DNA from: an uncultured Gammaproteobacteria bacterium | Lineage (GTDB): Bacteria; Patescibacteriota; Microgenomatia; UBA10105; UBA927 | Length of the DNA: 55,395 bases | Direction: 5' to 3' | Assembly (NCBI GenBank): GCA_964361785.1 | Contig: CAYIBX010000005.1 | Coordinates: 1-55,395, forward strand | In this document: positions 21,127 to 55,253 of the stretch, piece after piece | Layout: every line of letters begins with the position of its first letter | How positions within the stretch are numbered: the first letter of the stretch is position 1 | Program-made: the position numbers and the translations under genes | Notes under the pieces: model-generated | The model's database searches: none | What the model was told of the DNA's origin: nothing | What the model saw: the letters and a program-made list of their open reading frames with translations, nothing else

Positions 21127-21684
21127 CTATTCACTGGCCTTACTGTTTTCTATCTCCACGTCAGTCTTCTTCTCATGTACCACCATCGCGGCTAAACTTC
21201 TGCCTTCCATGCGTGGTTCTCGTACTAATTTTACGACTCCTAAATCTTTTATAAATCGGTTCAGCACTTCAAATCCGAATTGTTTTCGTCCCAATTCTCG
21301 GCCTTTGTACAGAACAGTAATTTTGACTTGATTCCCATCAGCGAGAAATTCGTTGGCTCTTTTGAGTCTCGTGTCAAAATCATGCTGACCTATGAATGGA
21401 CGCAATCGAATTTCTTTTACCCCGACGTTTTTTTGCGTTTTTTTACTTTCCCGCTCTTTTCTAGCCTCTTGGTACTTAAATTTTTTGTAATCAATAAGTT
21501 TTGCTACCGGCGGCTTCGCGCTTGCGGATATTTCTACCACATCAAGCCCCAGCTCTTTGGCTTTCTGCAGTGCTTCAATTTTTGAAACGATGCCGATTTG
21601 TGCACCTTTATCATCCAGTAGCCGAATCGTCGGACTTTGGATCTGATAATTGATTTTATAAAATTTAAGTTGTTTTCCTTTCAA
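21127..21684 (-). CDS. infC: Translation initiation factor IF-3
   Basis: PPVAKLIDYKKFKY and KEIRLRP; non-ATG (TTG) start overlapping the thrS end. Confidence 0.95.
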   Translation of the reverse strand: MKGKQLKFYKINYQIQSPTIRLLDDKGAQIGIVSKIEALQKAKELGLDVVEISASAKPPVAKLIDYKKFKYQEARKERESKKTQKNVGVKEIRLRPFIGQHDFDTRLKRANEFLADGNQVKITVLYKGRELGRKQFGFEVLNRFIKDLGVVKLVREPRMEGRSLAAMVVHEKKTDVEIENSKASE

Positions 21685-23455
21685 TCTCGTCGGTTAACTT
21701 GGTGATAAATGTACTAAGGGGCATGCCCTTTAGCTCTTCACCACTTCTTGTACGCACAGAAACAGTGTTTGATTCTATTTCCGTATCCCCAATTATAGCC
21801 ATGTATGGCGTCTTTTGCAATGTGTGATATCGTATTTTAGCTCCCATTGGCTCACCTTTCGTATCTGCCTCCGCACGAATTTCTACTTTTTTTAATTCAT
21901 CTACTATTTGTTCTGCCTGCTTATTATGACGTTCGGCAATTGGGATTACAGCTACTTGTAAAGGTGAAAGCCAAAGAGGAAAAGCTCCGGTATAGAATTC
22001 GATAAGAAACGCTATGGTTCGTTCTATGGCTCCAACAGATGATCTATGGATGACGATAGGTTCTTGTTTGACACCGGTTTCGTTGGTGTATTCCAATGCA
22101 AAACGTTTTGGCATGACAAAGTCATATTGGACCGTAAAGGCAGTTTCTTCTTTCCCGTGAATGTTTTTCATTTGCACATCAATTTTCGGTCCATAAAAAG
22201 CTGCTTCGTTTGGTGCTTCATAATATTCTGCATTGCGGTCAATGAGCACCTTTCGTAATACCTGTTCAGCCCTGTCCCATGACGTATCGTCTGGAAAATA
22301 TTTTTTATCATCCTTTCTGTCTCCTAGAGATAGTCTATATCGGTAGTGTGTCCCCTGTTTCAGTCCAAAGGTATTAGATGCAAAATCTATAAGATCCAAA
22401 ACGCCATTGATTTCGTCAGTAGCCTGCTCCTTTGTCGCGATGATATGTGCATCTGCTAGACAGAAACTGCGGACACGCATGAGGCCTGATAGTTCGCCTG
22501 ATTTTTCAAAGCGATACAGTTTTGCTACTTCTGCTATTCGCATTGGTAATTCGCGATAACTCCTCGGTTGACTTCGATAGAGTTCAAAATGATGTGGACA
22601 TGTCATTGGGCGAAGCATGTATTCTTCATCCTCAATGTTAATAGGCGCATACATTGTATCTTTGTAATATGGATAATGACCGCTCGTTTTGTAAAGTGCT
22701 AGATTTGCTATATCTGGGGTGTATACGTGGCTATATCCTCGTTTTATTTCTTCATCGATAATAAATCGTTCTAAAATCCGACGAATAGTTGCTCCTTTTG
22801 CGGTCCAGAGGGGTAATCCTTTGCCAACAAGATCAGAAAAGACAAATAATCCAAGCTCAGTGCCTAGTTTTCGATGATCGCGTTTTTTGGCCTCTTCTTG
22901 CTGCAAGAGATATGTATCGAGTTCTGTTTTTTTCGGGAAGCACGTGCCGTAAATACGCGTCAGCATTTTGTTTTTCTCACTTCCCCGCCAATATGCTCCT
23001 GCAACAGAGAGGAGCTTAAAGTGTTTCAAATCATTATTGGGATGTGGACAATGGCCCCCTCGACAAAGATCCGTGTAGTCGCCAGATTTATAGAGCGTCA
23101 ATGTTTGACCTTCTAAACTAAATTCTTCTATAAGTTCTTTTTTGTACTCATTGTCTTTGAAAAATTTCATTGCTTCAGTTTTATTTGCTTCTATTCGTTC
23201 AAATCCTTTCCAAGACTTCACGAGTTCATGCATTTTTTGTTCAATTTTTTCAAAGTCTGCTTCTGAAACTTTTGTATCACCTCGGCCAGAGGCTGATCGT
23301 CCTTTGGACGAGAAGTCGAAATCATAATAAAAGCCGTGCTCTATTGCCGGCCCAATCGTTCGTTTGGCATCAGGATACAACTCCATTATTGCTGCTGCCA
23401 AAAGATGCGCACAGGAATGGCGAAGACATTCTAATTTTTTGTTATTATCTTCCAT
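21665..23455 (-). CDS. thrS: Threonine--tRNA ligase
   Basis: RHSCAHLLA, DLCRGGH, RDHRKLG, PMTCPHH, AFYGPKID; start 23455 has an AAGGAG SD. Confidence 0.97.
   Translation of the reverse strand: MEDNNKKLECLRHSCAHLLAAAIMELYPDAKRTIGPAIEHGFYYDFDFSSKGRSASGRGDTKVSEADFEKIEQKMHELVKSWKGFERIEANKTEAMKFFKDNEYKKELIEEFSLEGQTLTLYKSGDYTDLCRGGHCPHPNNDLKHFKLLSVAGAYWRGSEKNKMLTRIYGTCFPKKTELDTYLLQQEEAKKRDHRKLGTELGLFVFSDLVGKGLPLWTAKGATIRRILERFIIDEEIKRGYSHVYTPDIANLALYKTSGHYPYYKDTMYAPINIEDEEYMLRPMTCPHHFELYRSQPRSYRELPMRIAEVAKLYRFEKSGELSGLMRVRSFCLADAHIIATKEQATDEINGVLDLIDFASNTFGLKQGTHYRYRLSLGDRKDDKKYFPDDTSWDRAEQVLRKVLIDRNAEYYEAPNEAAFYGPKIDVQMKNIHGKEETAFTVQYDFVMPKRFALEYTNETGVKQEPIVIHRSSVGAIERTIAFLIEFYTGAFPLWLSPLQVAVIPIAERHNKQAEQIVDELKKVEIRAEADTKGEPMGAKIRYHTLQKTPYMAIIGDTEIESNTVSVRTRSGEELKGMPLSTFITKLTDEIERKTT
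23282..23311. repeat. 30-nt double-hairpin element read in-frame in thrS (SSKGRSASGR)
   Basis: TCGGCC-AGA-GGCTGA TCGTCC-TTT-GGACGA; near-identical copy at 49597-49626. Confidence 0.85.
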
Positions 23456-23471
23456 AAGTCTCCTTTGCAAT

Positions 23472-23610
23472 AAAAAAGTCACCCGTTCTTGTTGGAGCCC
23501 TTCAATTTCTCTAAAGGACGGTTCCATCCAACTTTGGTGACTTACTTTTCTATACTTCGCAATAGTGGCGCTCAGCTTTAGAGTTGGTTAGTCCCTATAC
23601 AAACGTTGAG
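23472..23610 (-). promoter_or_regulatory. Atypical compact Thr T-box leader
   Basis: TTGGATGGAACCGTCC T-box-like bulge with complementary GGGCTCCAAC; short 5' stem-loop whose loop ACTAACCAA holds Thr codons; U tract; TTGACA promoter at 23644-23649. Confidence 0.65.
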
Positions 23611-40206: not shown

Positions 40207-40294
40207 ATGTGAATACAATGCTCTTCACCCGCGCCCGAACAAATTTGTTTTCAAATTTGCGCGGGTTCGGGTAAACCACTTCAGCTAGACGTCC
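40207..40294 (-). repeat. Degenerate tRNA-Val 5' half with a 50-nt palindromic insert in the D-loop
   Basis: GGACGTCTAGCTGAAGTGGT[TTACCCG...CGGGTGA]AGAGCATTGTATTCACAT. Confidence 0.75.
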
Positions 40295-40551
40295 TTCAAA
40301 TAATTTTTTAGTACTCTCTGTAAATAATTTCGTCCCCACTGCGTTTTAAAGAATTGTTCTCTACTCGTAGCATCTTGTTGATGCAAATACGCTTCGTAAT
40401 AGATTAGAATAAATGGCTTTCTATGTTTAGTACTTTCCACTTTGCCAGAGTTGTGATCTTGAAACCGACGCTTAAGGTTATCTGTATACCCTGAATAGTG
40501 TTTGTTATCGATTAAACTTCGTAAAATATATGTATAGTACACAGAATGCAA
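40285..40551 (-). CDS. Small GIY-YIG endonuclease
   Basis: YYTYIL...HYSGYT.NL.RR...HN.G...ST, ILIYYE, A..RE...K; start TTG 40551 or GTG 40542. Confidence 0.9.
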   Translation of the reverse strand: MHSVYYTYILRSLIDNKHYSGYTDNLKRRFQDHNSGKVESTKHRKPFILIYYEAYLHQQDATSREQFFKTQWGRNYLQRVLKNYLKDV

Positions 40552-40619
40552 CGCTCTTCACCCGTTCAAATTTTTGCATAGCAAAAACTTGTTCGGGTAA
40601 ACCACTGAGCTACAAGTCC
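40544..40619 (-). repeat. Degenerate tRNA-Val 5' half with a 43-nt palindromic insert in the D-loop
   Basis: GGACTTGTAGCTCAGTGGT[TTACCCG...CGGGTGA]AGAGCGTTGCATTC. Confidence 0.75.
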
Positions 40620-49484: not shown

Positions 49485-49512
49485 AGAGTACTCTTTAAAA
49501 GAAAATCTTGTG

Positions 49513-49583
49513 AGCGGATGAAGGGAATCGAACCCTCGTCACCAGTTTGGAAAACTGGCGCTCTACCATTGAGCTACACCCGC
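49513..49583 (-). tRNA. tRNA-Gly(TCC)
   Basis: CCAGT-TTTCCAA-ACTGG anticodon arm; U73. Confidence 0.95.
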
Positions 49584-49586
49584 AAT

Positions 49587-49638
49587 TCTACCATTGTCAG
49601 CCCAAGGCTGATCGTCCTTTGGACGAAGCTACACCCGC
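49587..49638 (-). repeat. Duplicated tRNA-Gly 5' end interrupted by the 30-nt double-hairpin element
   Basis: GCGGGTGTAGCT[TCGTCCAAAGGACGATCAGCCTTGGGCTGA]CAATGGTAGA, 3 nt upstream of the intact GCGGGTGTAGCTCAATGGTAGA. Confidence 0.9.
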
Positions 49639-49686
49639 TGAGTGTCTTAGGTATTATATCTTGTTTTTCCATCCTTGTCTTTTTCA

Positions 49687-51094: not shown

Positions 51095-51153
51095 AGTACC
51101 GTTATTGTATAAGGTTTGGTACAATAATGCAGTACGCGGGACAAAAAATATTT

Positions 51154-51218
51154 CGGGACGCAAGTTTCTTCCAGAGGGCTATCAACCTTTGGTTGAAGCC
51201 TATGGTTGACAGTTGGTA
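51154..51218 (+). repeat. Duplicated tRNA-Pro 5' end interrupted by a 43-nt triple-hairpin insert
   Basis: CGGGACGCAAGTT[TCTTCCAGAGGGCTA TCAACCTTTGGTTGA AGCCTATGGTTGA]CAGTTGGTA versus intact CGGGACGTAGTTCAGTTGGTA. Confidence 0.75.
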
Positions 51219-51227
51219 CATATATAT

Positions 51228-51303
51228 CGGGACGTAGTTCAGTTGGTAGAATGCGCGCTTTGGGAGCGTGAGGTCGAGAGTTCGAATCTCTCCGTCCCGA
51301 CCA
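51228..51303 (+). tRNA. tRNA-Pro(TGG)
   Basis: CGCGC-TTTGGGA-GCGTG anticodon arm; CCA encoded. Confidence 0.95.
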
Positions 51304-53683: not shown

Positions 53684-53759
53684 TGCCGAGTGGTGTAACG
53701 GTAACACGCCTGACTTTGGATCAGCGCGACTCTAGGTTCGAATCCTAGCTCGGCAGCCA
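53684..53759 (+). tRNA. tRNA-Gln(TTG)
   Basis: TGCCGAG/CTCGGCA acceptor; CTGA-CTTTGGA-TCAG; CCA encoded. Confidence 0.92.
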
Positions 53760-55253
53760 GTAAGAATTGGAAAGAGGTCGGGAGGTAGCGCTTTCCGCGC
53801 CCGCCTCCGCGGAAAGCGCGTCAAATCCGCCTTTTTTGAAACTTGCGGACAGCCGCCGATCCTTTAAAAAGAAGTTCGAGCCGACAGTTTTTGCCATGAT
53901 CGATAAATCATGGCAACTATTTTTTGCGCGCGCGAGTTTGTGCGCTGTAAGCGCACTATTTACGAATTCGGCAAAAGGTTCGAGCCATTCAACGCCGTTT
54001 TGAGAAATTTCCTTAATTTTGGAGTTAAGAAGCGATTTTGTTTCGACTAATTCATTTTTCTTTTTTTGATAATCCTCGGGAGAAATAATTTTATCTAAAT
54101 AACCCTCAAGCAAACGGTCTGTCTTTTCTTCTGTTTCTTTGAGTTGGAGTTGATAAGTTGAAACAATTCCCGATGATTTTTCTTTTTCTAGGCCTGCATC
54201 TTTACCTGCCCACTCAAGAAACTTTTTTGCGGCGGGCGGCGGCAAAGATGCTCGCAAAACAATATCCTTTAATTGTTTCTCAATCTCTTCTTTATCAATA
54301 TATTTTTGCGGGCAAGCACCCATTTTCTTAGAGCAACGGTAGTAGATATACTCGACTTTTCTATTTGTTCGTTTGTAATACTTGGTGTGCTTTTCTGCGG
54401 TGATTGCGCCGCAACACTCGCCACACTTAGCTAAACCCAGAAAATCAAACAAGTGTTTGTTATTCTTCACTTTGCGGCTTTTCAGCTTGACTACTTCCTG
54501 GCATTTATCAAAAAGTTTCTTGCTTATTAGGGGCGGATGTTGTCCCTCGTAAAGTTCGCCGCAAAATTTCATCACTCCGTAGTAAAACGGATCAGTCAAC
54601 ATTCTTTTGACTTTATCAAGGTGAAGTTCATGACCGGACTTGTTGAAAATTTTGTTTTGGTTGAAAAATTTGCGGATATCCGCATAGCCGTAGCCGCCGG
54701 TAGCAAAAAGCTGAAAAGCTTTTTGCACATACTTGGTTCGCTTCTTATCAACCTCTATTTTCTTGTTGATGTTTAAGTAGCCAAATGGCGCTTGATTCGG
54801 CCACTCGCCGCGGCGGAGTTTTTGGCGATTGCCCCGCTTTACATTTTCGGAAAGATTATCAACATAATATTTTGACTGACCAAAAGCGATATTAAGCATA
54901 AATTTCCCTTGAGGCGTATTTTCAAACCAAAAGGATGGAAATTTCAAGTCAAGTAATTTTCCAGTGTCCAATAAGTAGATAATCTTTCCGCCATCAACAG
55001 AATTTCTGGCCAAACGGTCGGGATGCCACGATAAAATTCCATCAGCTTTTCCGTCCTCAATTTCTTTTAGTACTTCTGCAAATTTTTCCCGACCGGGTTC
55101 TTTAGCGGTTTTGCTCTCGGTAATAAAAGAAACAATTTTCAAATTTTCTTTTGCGGCGAATTCTTCTAATTCTGCAACTTGAGCTTCAATAGACAAAATT
55201 TGTCTGTCAGGTTCATCGGTTGATTTTCTGTAATACGCAATATATTTGATCAT
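53745..55253 (-). mobile_element. Large serine recombinase of an element integrated at tRNA-Gln
   Basis: YYRKST catalytic Ser, DRLARN, recombinase domain, CGEC...YYRC zinc ribbon, coiled coil; stop codon lies inside the tRNA-Gln 3' end. Confidence 0.92.
53809..53858. repeat. Left arm of a perfect 50-bp inverted repeat
   Basis: GCGGAAAGCGCGTCAAATCCGCCTTTTTTGAAACTTGCGGACAGCCGCCG is the reverse complement of 55346-55395. Confidence 0.9.

Follow-up and report, generated by a model that had tools for sequence, protein, structure and literature searches.

A hairpin-split copy of the tRNA-Gly(UCC) 5′ end as a probable remnant of a GIY-YIG nuclease cassette

The tRNA-Gly(UCC) locus

In a 55,395-nt stretch of DNA (contig CAYIBX010000005.1; the window), we analysed a short structure immediately upstream of the tRNA-Gly(UCC) gene, in which a copy of the 5′ end of the tRNA is split by a 30-nt double hairpin. 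Read on the minus strand from 49638 to 49512, the order is nt 1-12 of tRNA-Gly(UCC), the double hairpin, nt 13-22, ATT and the complete tRNA, with a promoter-like site in front:

49653..49681 (−): promoter-like site, AAGACA, 17 nt, TATAAT; 10/12 matches, 14 nt before the dead 5′ copy
49627..49638 (−): dead copy of tRNA-Gly(UCC) nt 1-12, GCGGGTGTAGCT; exact 12-mer, the same as 49583-49572
49597..49626 (−): type-1 double hairpin (double-hairpin element, DHE), 30 nt, TCGTCCAAAGGACGA-TCAGCCTTGGGCTGA; hairpin 1 at 49626-49612, hairpin 2 at 49611-49597
49587..49596 (−): dead copy of tRNA-Gly(UCC) nt 13-22, CAATGGTAGA; exact match
49584..49586 (−): spacer ATT, 3 nt; in related cassettes the equivalent place is occupied by an open reading frame (ORF) for a nuclease
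49512..49583 (−): intact tRNA-Gly(UCC), called by ARAGORN (anticodon tcc) and Rfam

As stated in an original prediction made from the letters alone, the first 22 nt of the tRNA are duplicated 3 nt upstream, in a 12-nt and a 10-nt piece that correspond to tRNA positions 1-12 and 13-22, and the double hairpin lies cleanly at position 12/13. Only one boundary restores the match, which is lost when the insert boundary is moved by one base either way. This unique restoration of the tRNA sequence upon removal of the 30 nt argues for a clean insert that did not duplicate its target. Both 15-mers form perfect hairpins, in which a 6-bp stem closes a 3-nt loop; folded as DNA, the double hairpin reaches −10.3 kcal/mol (z = −3.08), a value matched by one shuffle in 200. 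With up to three mismatches, the 30-mer occurs twice in the window compared with 0/100 shuffles, and the pattern TCNNCCNNNGGNNGA occurs five times compared with a shuffle mean of 0.31, a count reached by 0/100 shuffles. These shuffle tests exclude a chance origin of the hairpin and the 30-mer.

The Rfam tRNA model (RF00005) matches 49513-49583 (−) with 75 bits against a gathering score of 29, the upstream 22-nt copy gave no tRNA call, and no family besides tRNA was matched in an Rfam scan of the window. The gene is the sole one with this anticodon found in the 42 contigs of the genome (1.11 Mb, ~41% G+C). The distance of 14 nt between promoter and dead copy is the usual spacing of tRNA genes, and the promoter stands before the dead copy, not before the intact tRNA. 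In relatives from the same genus in which this site is empty, TATAAT lies 9-16 nt 5′ of the tRNA start.

Logan contigs from three runs (X1 record 8, X2 record 15 and X3 record 22) bridge the whole structure without any difference, running from inside the tRNA (49554 or 49537) via ATT, the fragment and the hairpins to 49950, with no joints or indels reported; an assembly artefact is thus rejected. The three runs stem from a single study (two samples), possibly the one from which the assembly itself was made; hence, the agreement, which upholds the duplication, may be that of a second assembler on the same data and not of an independent sample. The Logan assembler presumably uses a word size of 31, and the 12-nt and 10-nt repeats are both shorter. 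A hairpin-less variant of the site was not seen in these contigs, which drop rare variants and do not address minor alleles. The runs listed as containing the stretch include no RNA run.

GIY-YIG nuclease cassettes at tRNA 5′ ends

A metagenome scan for GTAGYT, a type-1 hairpin and CAATGG gave four stretches (L247-L250), of which L249 is syntenic with the locus described here, with 57% amino acid identity in the upstream DUF192 gene and 51% in the downstream ORF. Its tRNA-Gly(UCC) is identical at 72/72 positions, and it is preceded by GGGTGTAGCT, a type-1 double hairpin at 12/13, CAATGGT, and an 84-aa GIY-YIG ORF that stops on the TAG of the tRNA. The ORF thus lies exactly where the window has ATT, as fits the earlier remark that no nuclease gene remains at the site. 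In L250, GCGGGTGTAGCT, the hairpin and CAATGGTAGAG are followed by the start of an ORF and the contig end. Based on L249 and L250, we conclude that the site in the window differs in having no ORF, with ATT in its place. The remaining two stretches lie at other tRNAs:

L248: tRNA-His; same build, with ORF
L247: tRNA-Arg(CCT); ORF-less form

The order seen in L249 is recurrent and consists of a tRNA promoter, a dead 5′ tRNA fragment split by one or more hairpin modules, a GIY-YIG ORF and an intact tRNA. In complete cassettes, the dead copy comprises the first 13-37 nt of the tRNA and carries one or two hairpin modules, the nuclease ORF (~84-112 aa) begins immediately after this copy, and it stops at most ~10 nt from the complete tRNA copy, often on its T8-A9-G10. 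PF01541 spans nearly the whole length of these 84-112-aa ORFs from related cassettes, and in NCBIfam the only match is a sub-threshold one to a group I intron endonuclease model.

To survey these genes, we used two sets of small GIY-YIG ORFs. The first set comprises 25 ORFs, i.e., six from the genome itself and 19 of 23 matches in five other genomes, four frames of at least 328 aa having been dropped. A same-strand tRNA starts −20 to +9 nt from the stop in nine cases and at +53 or +87 in two; three ORFs lie behind a tRNA, and 11 are without one. In all 11 cases with a downstream tRNA, one or more hairpins lie upstream of the ORF, and in at least 9/11 they lie within a recognisable 5′ fragment of the same tRNA type. 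The second set, 40 unselected ORFs from genus relatives, gave a similar arrangement: 16/40 abut a same-strand tRNA (−20 to +8), half of these (8/16) stop on T8-A9-G10, three more have the tRNA at +60 to +121, and a split fragment is present in 14-15 of the 19. The surveyed cassettes involve at least 13 different tRNA species; hairpins on both sides of the nuclease gene are not the rule, and presence or absence of a GIY-YIG cassette at the same tRNA varies among relatives.

ORFs that stop on the T8-A9-G10 (TAG) of the tRNA itself include many among the genus loci L212-L243 and those at L176, contig C4 of the genome itself and L249; in such cases, the acceptor stem supplies the final two or three codons. 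At L212 (genome G015), set against C4, the dead tRNA-Gly(CCC) fragment GCGGGATTAGT can be compared with that genome's own tRNA (GCGGGCG...CGCCCGC): it differs at positions 6 and 7 (AT vs CG) and matches the AT of G000. Thus, the fragment has a history separate from that of the tRNA, and its sequence suggests a transfer between species.

The type of hairpin goes together with a particular lineage of nucleases. In a tree of 22 sequences, tRNA-linked and unlinked nucleases split with a support of 94/90, and the sequences beside type-1 hairpins form a clade with a support of 96/93. For 7/7 complete ORFs beside a type-1 double hairpin (L173, L176, L178, L189, G017/P0001, L248 and L249), the nearest relatives are each other, with 47-61% identity. 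An eighth nuclease, in G422, a metagenome-assembled genome (MAG) labelled Chloroflexota, is 58% identical to P0001 and lies behind a tRNA-Val(GAC) fragment carrying two double hairpins. Type-1 cassettes with an ORF involve five tRNA types (Asp, Val, Pro, His and Gly), with that of G017 at tRNA-Pro(GGG). Other cassettes of the same genomes have other hairpins and other nuclease lineages.

The genome itself has six small GIY-YIG ORFs, four of them with an intact tRNA downstream:

C30: tRNA-Leu(GAG) cassette; TATAAT, nt 1-9, double hairpin, GCGA, ORF, AAAAAT, intact tRNA
C4: tRNA-Gly(CCC) cassette; nt 1-11, a different double hairpin, ACAC, ORF, intact tRNA
Window, 40638-40126 (−): tRNA-Val(CAC) cassette; promoter, split fragment, ORF, second split fragment, intact tRNA
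C3: cassette of looser build; ORF between two tRNA-Ser genes
C42: GIY-YIG ORF behind tRNA-Ser(ACT)
C10: GIY-YIG ORF with no tRNA nearby

The tRNA-Val(CAC) cassette in the window is preceded by TATAAT at about 40630, and its ORF stops on the TAG that forms positions 8-10 of the second tRNA-Val fragment. Its parts, together with the ORF-less forms at other tRNAs that we describe in detail, are as follows:

40544..40619 (−): tRNA-Val-like 5′ fragment; fragment 40619-40600, 42-nt hairpin insert 40599-40558, continuation 40557-40544
40285..40551 (−): single-domain GIY-YIG ORF, 88 aa; PF01541, 53.4 bits
40207..40294 (−): second hairpin-split tRNA-Val 5′ fragment, ORF-less; followed by AAAGATAT and the intact tRNA-Val(CAC) at 40198-40126
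51137..51227 (+): decayed ORF-less form before tRNA-Pro(UGG) (51228-51303), from direct reading of the sequence
G014 (same genus), tRNA-Arg(CCG): nt 1-12, same hairpin type, nt 13-21, TATATT, tRNA

Besides tRNA-Pro(UGG) and the second tRNA-Val fragment, ORF-less sites of the genome are two on contig C16 and one at tRNA-Met. The tRNA-Pro(UGG) form consists of CGGGACGcAAGTT, three 13-15-nt hairpin units, CAGTTGGTA (nt 13-21) and CATATATAT; an additional CGGGAC copy lies upstream at 51137. In line with the original prediction, the hairpin repeatedly lies in the D-arm: it is at position 12/13 in the tRNA 5′ copies at the tRNA-Arg of G014 and the tRNA-Pro of G017 and also at the genome's own C16, L178, L247, L248 and L249. 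A seed search for 5′ copies at all 46 tRNAs did not discriminate (10 upstream vs 8 downstream and 5 on the reverse strand) because neighbouring tRNAs share D-arm words; the calls of split fragments rest on direct reading of the sites and not on this search.

The double hairpin in genes and in other genomes

In the genome, we took 15 double hairpins as real. They form a family whose members are pairs of 15-nt units (6-bp stem, 3-nt loop), most of which read TCnnnC-nnn-GnnnGA. Eight of the 15 lie inside open frames of at least 300 aa, and in seven of these eight the phase is such that each unit starts with Ser and ends with Arg or Gly. The window holds a second copy of the 30-mer:

23282..23311 (−): copy of the 30-mer (27/30 identical), in frame in thrS, adding SSKGRSASGR; from a 16-ortholog alignment

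Within the thrS ORF (21665-23527), SSKGRSASGR falls between DFDF and GDTKVSE of threonyl-tRNA synthetase (ThrRS). The insert is found in 1/16 genus genomes, i.e., the genome itself only, and is missing from 15/15 other orthologs; one of the three changes in the copy turns an in-frame TGA into CGA. This clean, in-frame copy argues that the hairpin element inserts cleanly and without duplication and that an essential protein can accommodate it, and it agrees with the proposal that the hairpin is a non-autonomous insertion element. On C16, two paralogous relics precede two tRNA-Arg genes, one with a double hairpin between GTAGTT and CAATGGA and the other without; thus, the arrival of the hairpin can be a separate, later and clean event.

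A different part of the original prediction, namely that the hairpin hit a working tRNA that was then rescued by duplication, is not supported. The insertion in thrS made no duplication, C16 has a relic with the hairpin and a paralogous relic without it, and the 5′ fragment belongs to the nuclease cassette as a constant component. Rather, these three lines of evidence argue that the duplication belongs to the cassette and that the hairpin sits in an already dead copy.

Based on a scan of genome contigs with the 30-mer pattern, the element is present in at least 115 stretches from several phyla. Among the 80 loci listed, 39 have titles naming Patescibacteria lineages, 15 lie in one Kiritimatiellae MAG and 16 in Gammaproteobacteria-labelled MAGs; Chloroflexota, Bacteroidota and others are also represented. 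Several listed loci have tRNA D-arm flanks, and four lead directly into a small GIY-YIG ORF. The hairpin is found in protein-coding genes and in both orientations. At the one free stem position, the two sides are complementary in 79/82 copies vs 40 expected if they were independent, which argues that the hairpin itself is maintained or recognised. The flanks of 81 copies have T at −1 and T at −2 in 57/81 each and A at −4 in 45/81, and amount to a partial preference only for the insertion context A-N-Y-T.

A class-level scan with the narrow pattern TAGYT, hairpin and CAATGG gave four sites in 3/401 genomes compared with 0 for the reversed control; this form is rare. A family-level scan for the TCTGGC/TCAGGC double hairpin was positive in 2/46 genomes, a sample that had only two further genomes of the genus. 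In the Kiritimatiellae-labelled MAG, the 30-mer lies within a larger repeat, in which it is flanked by CAGCCCTT and ACGGGCTTGAC (L055, L068, L074 and others), in at least eight of the 15 listed loci, and others lie in ACTTGCTCGGGA-like tandem repeats; we looked in this genome for a close relative of the nuclease clade and found none. In another family (L029; G304:C9:375-470), a tRNA-like stretch has a hairpin pair at 12/13 and a TCCGCC hairpin at the place of the anticodon arm; ARAGORN called no tRNA there, and no intact copy was seen in the surrounding 1.9 kb.

Origin of the structure and relation to known systems

We suggest that the stretch upstream of tRNA-Gly(UCC) is probably an ORF-less remnant, left by a selfish cassette of a kind that settles at tRNA 5′ ends. 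This suggestion builds on the architecture of the site, its recurrence, the ORF-bearing ortholog, the duplication-free insertion of the hairpin, and the link between hairpin type and nuclease clade. According to this model, the nuclease gene was lost at tRNA-Gly(UCC), an expected end to the life cycle of a selfish nuclease gene, and nt 1-22, the double hairpin at 12/13 and ATT would be left over. In a complete cassette, the ORF would be transcribed from the borrowed tRNA promoter and RNase P would free the tRNA; by analogy with the Ssn nucleases, the nuclease may bind or cut the hairpin as single-stranded DNA (ssDNA). We speculate that the cassette is copied into empty tRNA sites, driven by the nuclease or by recombination, when breaks are repaired or when DNA taken up by the cell recombines, and that within the dead copy the hairpin interrupts either the direct repeat or the nuclease's target. 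Simple repair models do not account for the 5′ duplication of a cassette that reaches a different tRNA type, for which they would give a chimeric acceptor stem. The remnant is now probably just part of a ~60-70-nt 5′ leader that RNase P would remove.

Several observations weigh against this interpretation. Among genus relatives, a double hairpin upstream of tRNA-Gly(UCC) was found in 0/9 that were read and a GIY-YIG ORF beside this tRNA in 0/17. With flanking genes just 51-57% identical, L249 is a distant ortholog. At the site itself there is no trace of an ORF, only ATT, and judged from the locus alone an ORF-free history is possible; the hairpin may also have arrived after loss of the ORF, as in the C16 relic with a hairpin and its paralog without. 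The pairing of clade and hairpin is partly ascertained via the hairpin, through which most type-1 cases were found. Outside Patescibacteria this pairing held in one of five hairpin-bearing genomes (G422); in the other four, which include the Kiritimatiellae MAG with its 15 listed copies, the best match to P0001 has 28-43% identity. The solved structures closest to the nucleases by sequence are those of two UPF0213 proteins, 1ywl and 1zg2. The putative action of the nucleases on the hairpin (binding or cutting) is assigned by analogy. Finally, in the minimum-energy fold predicted for the precursor, the dead GCGGGUG copy, and not the true 5′ end, pairs with the 3′ acceptor strand of the tRNA; if real, this pairing would come at a small cost to the cell and would not be neutral.

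The hairpin might instead be an independent mini-element that moved in trans, e.g., by a REP-type Y1/HUH transposase, into an unrelated 5′ tandem duplication that never held a nuclease gene. We consider this unlikely. It would account for the clean, in-frame and duplication-free insertion in thrS, the eight of 15 double hairpins in long open frames, the C16 relics with and without hairpin, and the genomes that have many copies and no member of the nuclease clade. The short preferred flank context of the 81 copies recalls IS200/IS605 elements, which use short target words, and the genome has two Y1_Tnp genes, one of which matches the model for REP-associated tyrosine transposases below the cut-off (40.8 vs 80 bits). 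However, the syntenic L249 has an ORF at the same site with the same hairpin at the same position, split 5′ fragments recur with ORFs at many tRNAs, and in 8/8 ORF-bearing type-1 cassettes the nuclease is from one clade. Moreover, within 600 nt of the two Y1 genes there is a different hairpin, GCAAGGGGCCCCCTTGC (C34), or none was found (C11). These transposase-like genes lie at C34:7187-7963 (+) and C11:14089-14322 (−), and GCAAGGGGCCCCCTTGC hairpins occur before, within and after the former.

According to the one-step origin envisaged in the original prediction, insertion of the hairpin into the working tRNA itself makes the 5′ duplication and the intact tRNA is regenerated simultaneously, for instance through template switching or through staggered cuts that are filled in. 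Very short spacers do recur among the ORF-less forms (ATT, TATATT, ATAC, CATATATAT and AAAGATAT), and in the relative G001 a bare, diverged 12-nt copy of the tRNA start abuts tRNA-Gly(UCC); such forms resemble the footprints of a regular process. Nevertheless, we regard this route as improbable since in thrS, where the empty site is known, the hairpin inserted without duplication, and since the hairpin lies within the first copy and not between the copies, other than a duplication by staggered cuts would give. The end of the fragment also ranges from about nt 13 to 37 even inside one nuclease clade, and ORF-bearing forms of the same locus exist. Least probable, in our view, is a benefit that maintains the leader with its dead copy and hairpins; it might be a decoy, or a signal by which the tRNA precursor is processed or stabilised. 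The precursor (49509-49650, −) is predicted to fold with −52.7 kcal/mol (z = −2.84), i.e., more stably than shuffles, and the pairing of the stem is kept in 79/82 copies, but an element recognised as DNA predicts this conservation equally. In addition, the structure is missing at the same tRNA in the nine genus relatives read, the hairpin also lies in protein-coding genes in both orientations, and the window matches no Rfam family except tRNA.

Five relatives have 12 to ~95 nt of unrelated, hairpin-rich filler between the promoter and tRNA-Gly(UCC) (L002, L003, L005, L009 and L050 in G010, G015, G012, G001 and G004, respectively), and in six others the promoter lies 9-16 nt from the tRNA. Sequence seems to be gained and to decay especially often in the gap between promoter and tRNA-Gly(UCC).

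Beyond the remnant itself, we put forward, as a tentative proposal, that there is an undescribed and widespread class of selfish cassettes at tRNA 5′ ends in Patescibacteria and at least one Chloroflexota-labelled genome. In these cassettes, a minimal GIY-YIG nuclease would ride on the tRNA promoter; the tRNA would be regenerated via a 5′ duplication, with the frame ending on its T8-A9-G10; the clade-specific 15-nt hairpin modules would be the ssDNA recognition sites of the nuclease; and modules would have escaped as 30-nt frame-preserving mini-elements that cross phylum borders and lengthen essential proteins, ThrRS among them, by Ser/Gly/Ala/Arg-rich decapeptides.

Among described systems, the one most similar to these cassettes is the Ssn family of single-domain GIY-YIG ssDNA nucleases, whose genes are flanked by hairpin repeats known as NTS/SRM (Chenal et al., Nat Commun 2025, PMC11893778). 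The main text describes a single GIY-YIG domain of ~90-100 aa, a gene flanked by ~30-nt hairpin repeats that are also dispersed in the genome, and, in the authors' own remark, an IS-like repeat-gene-repeat layout (PMC11893778). A domain of this size is present in the related cassettes and not at the site in the window, which has no ORF; hairpins lie directly upstream of the gene in 11/11 and 14-15/19 cases in the first and unselected set, respectively, and further copies are dispersed. By contrast, the gene in our cassettes is preceded by a dead, hairpin-split 5′ fragment and followed by an intact tRNA, on whose TAG it often ends, and the hairpins consist of two 15-nt units with 6-bp stems, are unrelated in sequence to NTS, and, as a further difference from the system described there, also occur in frame in coding genes. 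The same text contains 0 occurrences of "tRNA" and 0 of "Patescibacteria" (PMC11893778). The nucleases described here are at most candidate members of Ssn (cd10448), the nearest solved structures being UPF0213 proteins, and site-specific cleavage of ssDNA by them is a candidate activity assigned by analogy.

Homing endonucleases of the SegB type are said to have DNA-binding parts besides the catalytic domain, and we know of no hairpin module and no duplicated tRNA 5′ fragment at segB. SegB, a free-standing GIY-YIG homing endonuclease from the tRNA gene cluster of phage T4, resembles our nucleases in that its gene lies among tRNA genes and is thought to favour inheritance of its own region (PMC2330249). 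REP/BIME repeats with RAYT (Y1) transposases and IS200/IS605 elements are raised in the Discussion of the Ssn paper (PMC11893778). They share with the double hairpin short dispersed hairpins, duplication-free insertion beside a short word, and the presence of Y1 genes in the genome; for IS200/IS605, the insertion without duplication agrees, and a fixed 4-5-nt word is matched only in part. REPs are extragenic and flank a single-copy Y1 (RAYT) gene. Here, in contrast, 8/15 double hairpins lie in long open frames, the Y1 genes are not flanked by the hairpin, and a GIY-YIG clade co-occurs with it; the intragenic repeats, the flanks of the Y1 genes and the sub-cut-off match to the RAYT model do not fit REP/RAYT. 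Around the genome's Y1 genes, no autonomous element with double-hairpin ends was found.

Small palindromes that enter genes, also in frame, are known as Rickettsia palindromic elements (RPEs), yeast mitochondrial GC clusters and fungal mitochondrial double-hairpin elements, and the mitochondrial ones occur near mobile endonuclease ORFs that bring partial duplications of host genes. They differ in their hosts, which are organelles and Rickettsia, and RPEs, with ~100-150 bp, are longer than the 30 nt found here; to our knowledge, no palindromic element is a fixed module of a nuclease cassette at tRNA 5′ ends. Among the literature matches listed, "double-hairpin elements" referred to organelle genomes only. 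We found no report of GIY-YIG genes with split tRNA 5′ fragments or of a bacterial 30-nt element in a literature search whose scope lay outside subscription journals and the Ssn supplements. We rate as new the tie of a single-domain GIY-YIG nuclease with hairpin repeats to tRNA 5′ ends, nuclease-repeat systems of this kind being already known.

tRNA genes are landing sites of integrases, at their 3′ end. Here, the 5′ end is used: the nuclease gene borrows the promoter and leaves a working tRNA. For Patescibacteria, whose genomes are very small, the cassettes explain 10-residue inserts in conserved proteins as well as odd leaders and pseudo-fragments before tRNA genes; such leaders and fragments can cause tRNA annotation to err and assemblies to break. 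If the pairing of nuclease and hairpin is true, there would be many natural pairs of a tiny nuclease and a short hairpin with differing specificities; the Ssn work proposes such nucleases as tools for single-stranded DNA (PMC11893778).

Two 570-aa ORFs lie beside the tRNA-Gly(UCC) site; they have no Pfam match, and comparison indicates that they are not paralogs. Near the contig end, a large serine recombinase ORF (53745-55253, −) with Resolvase, Recombinase and zinc-ribbon domains shares 15 nt with the 3′ end of tRNA-Gln (53684-53759, +), and this region may be the edge of an integrated element.

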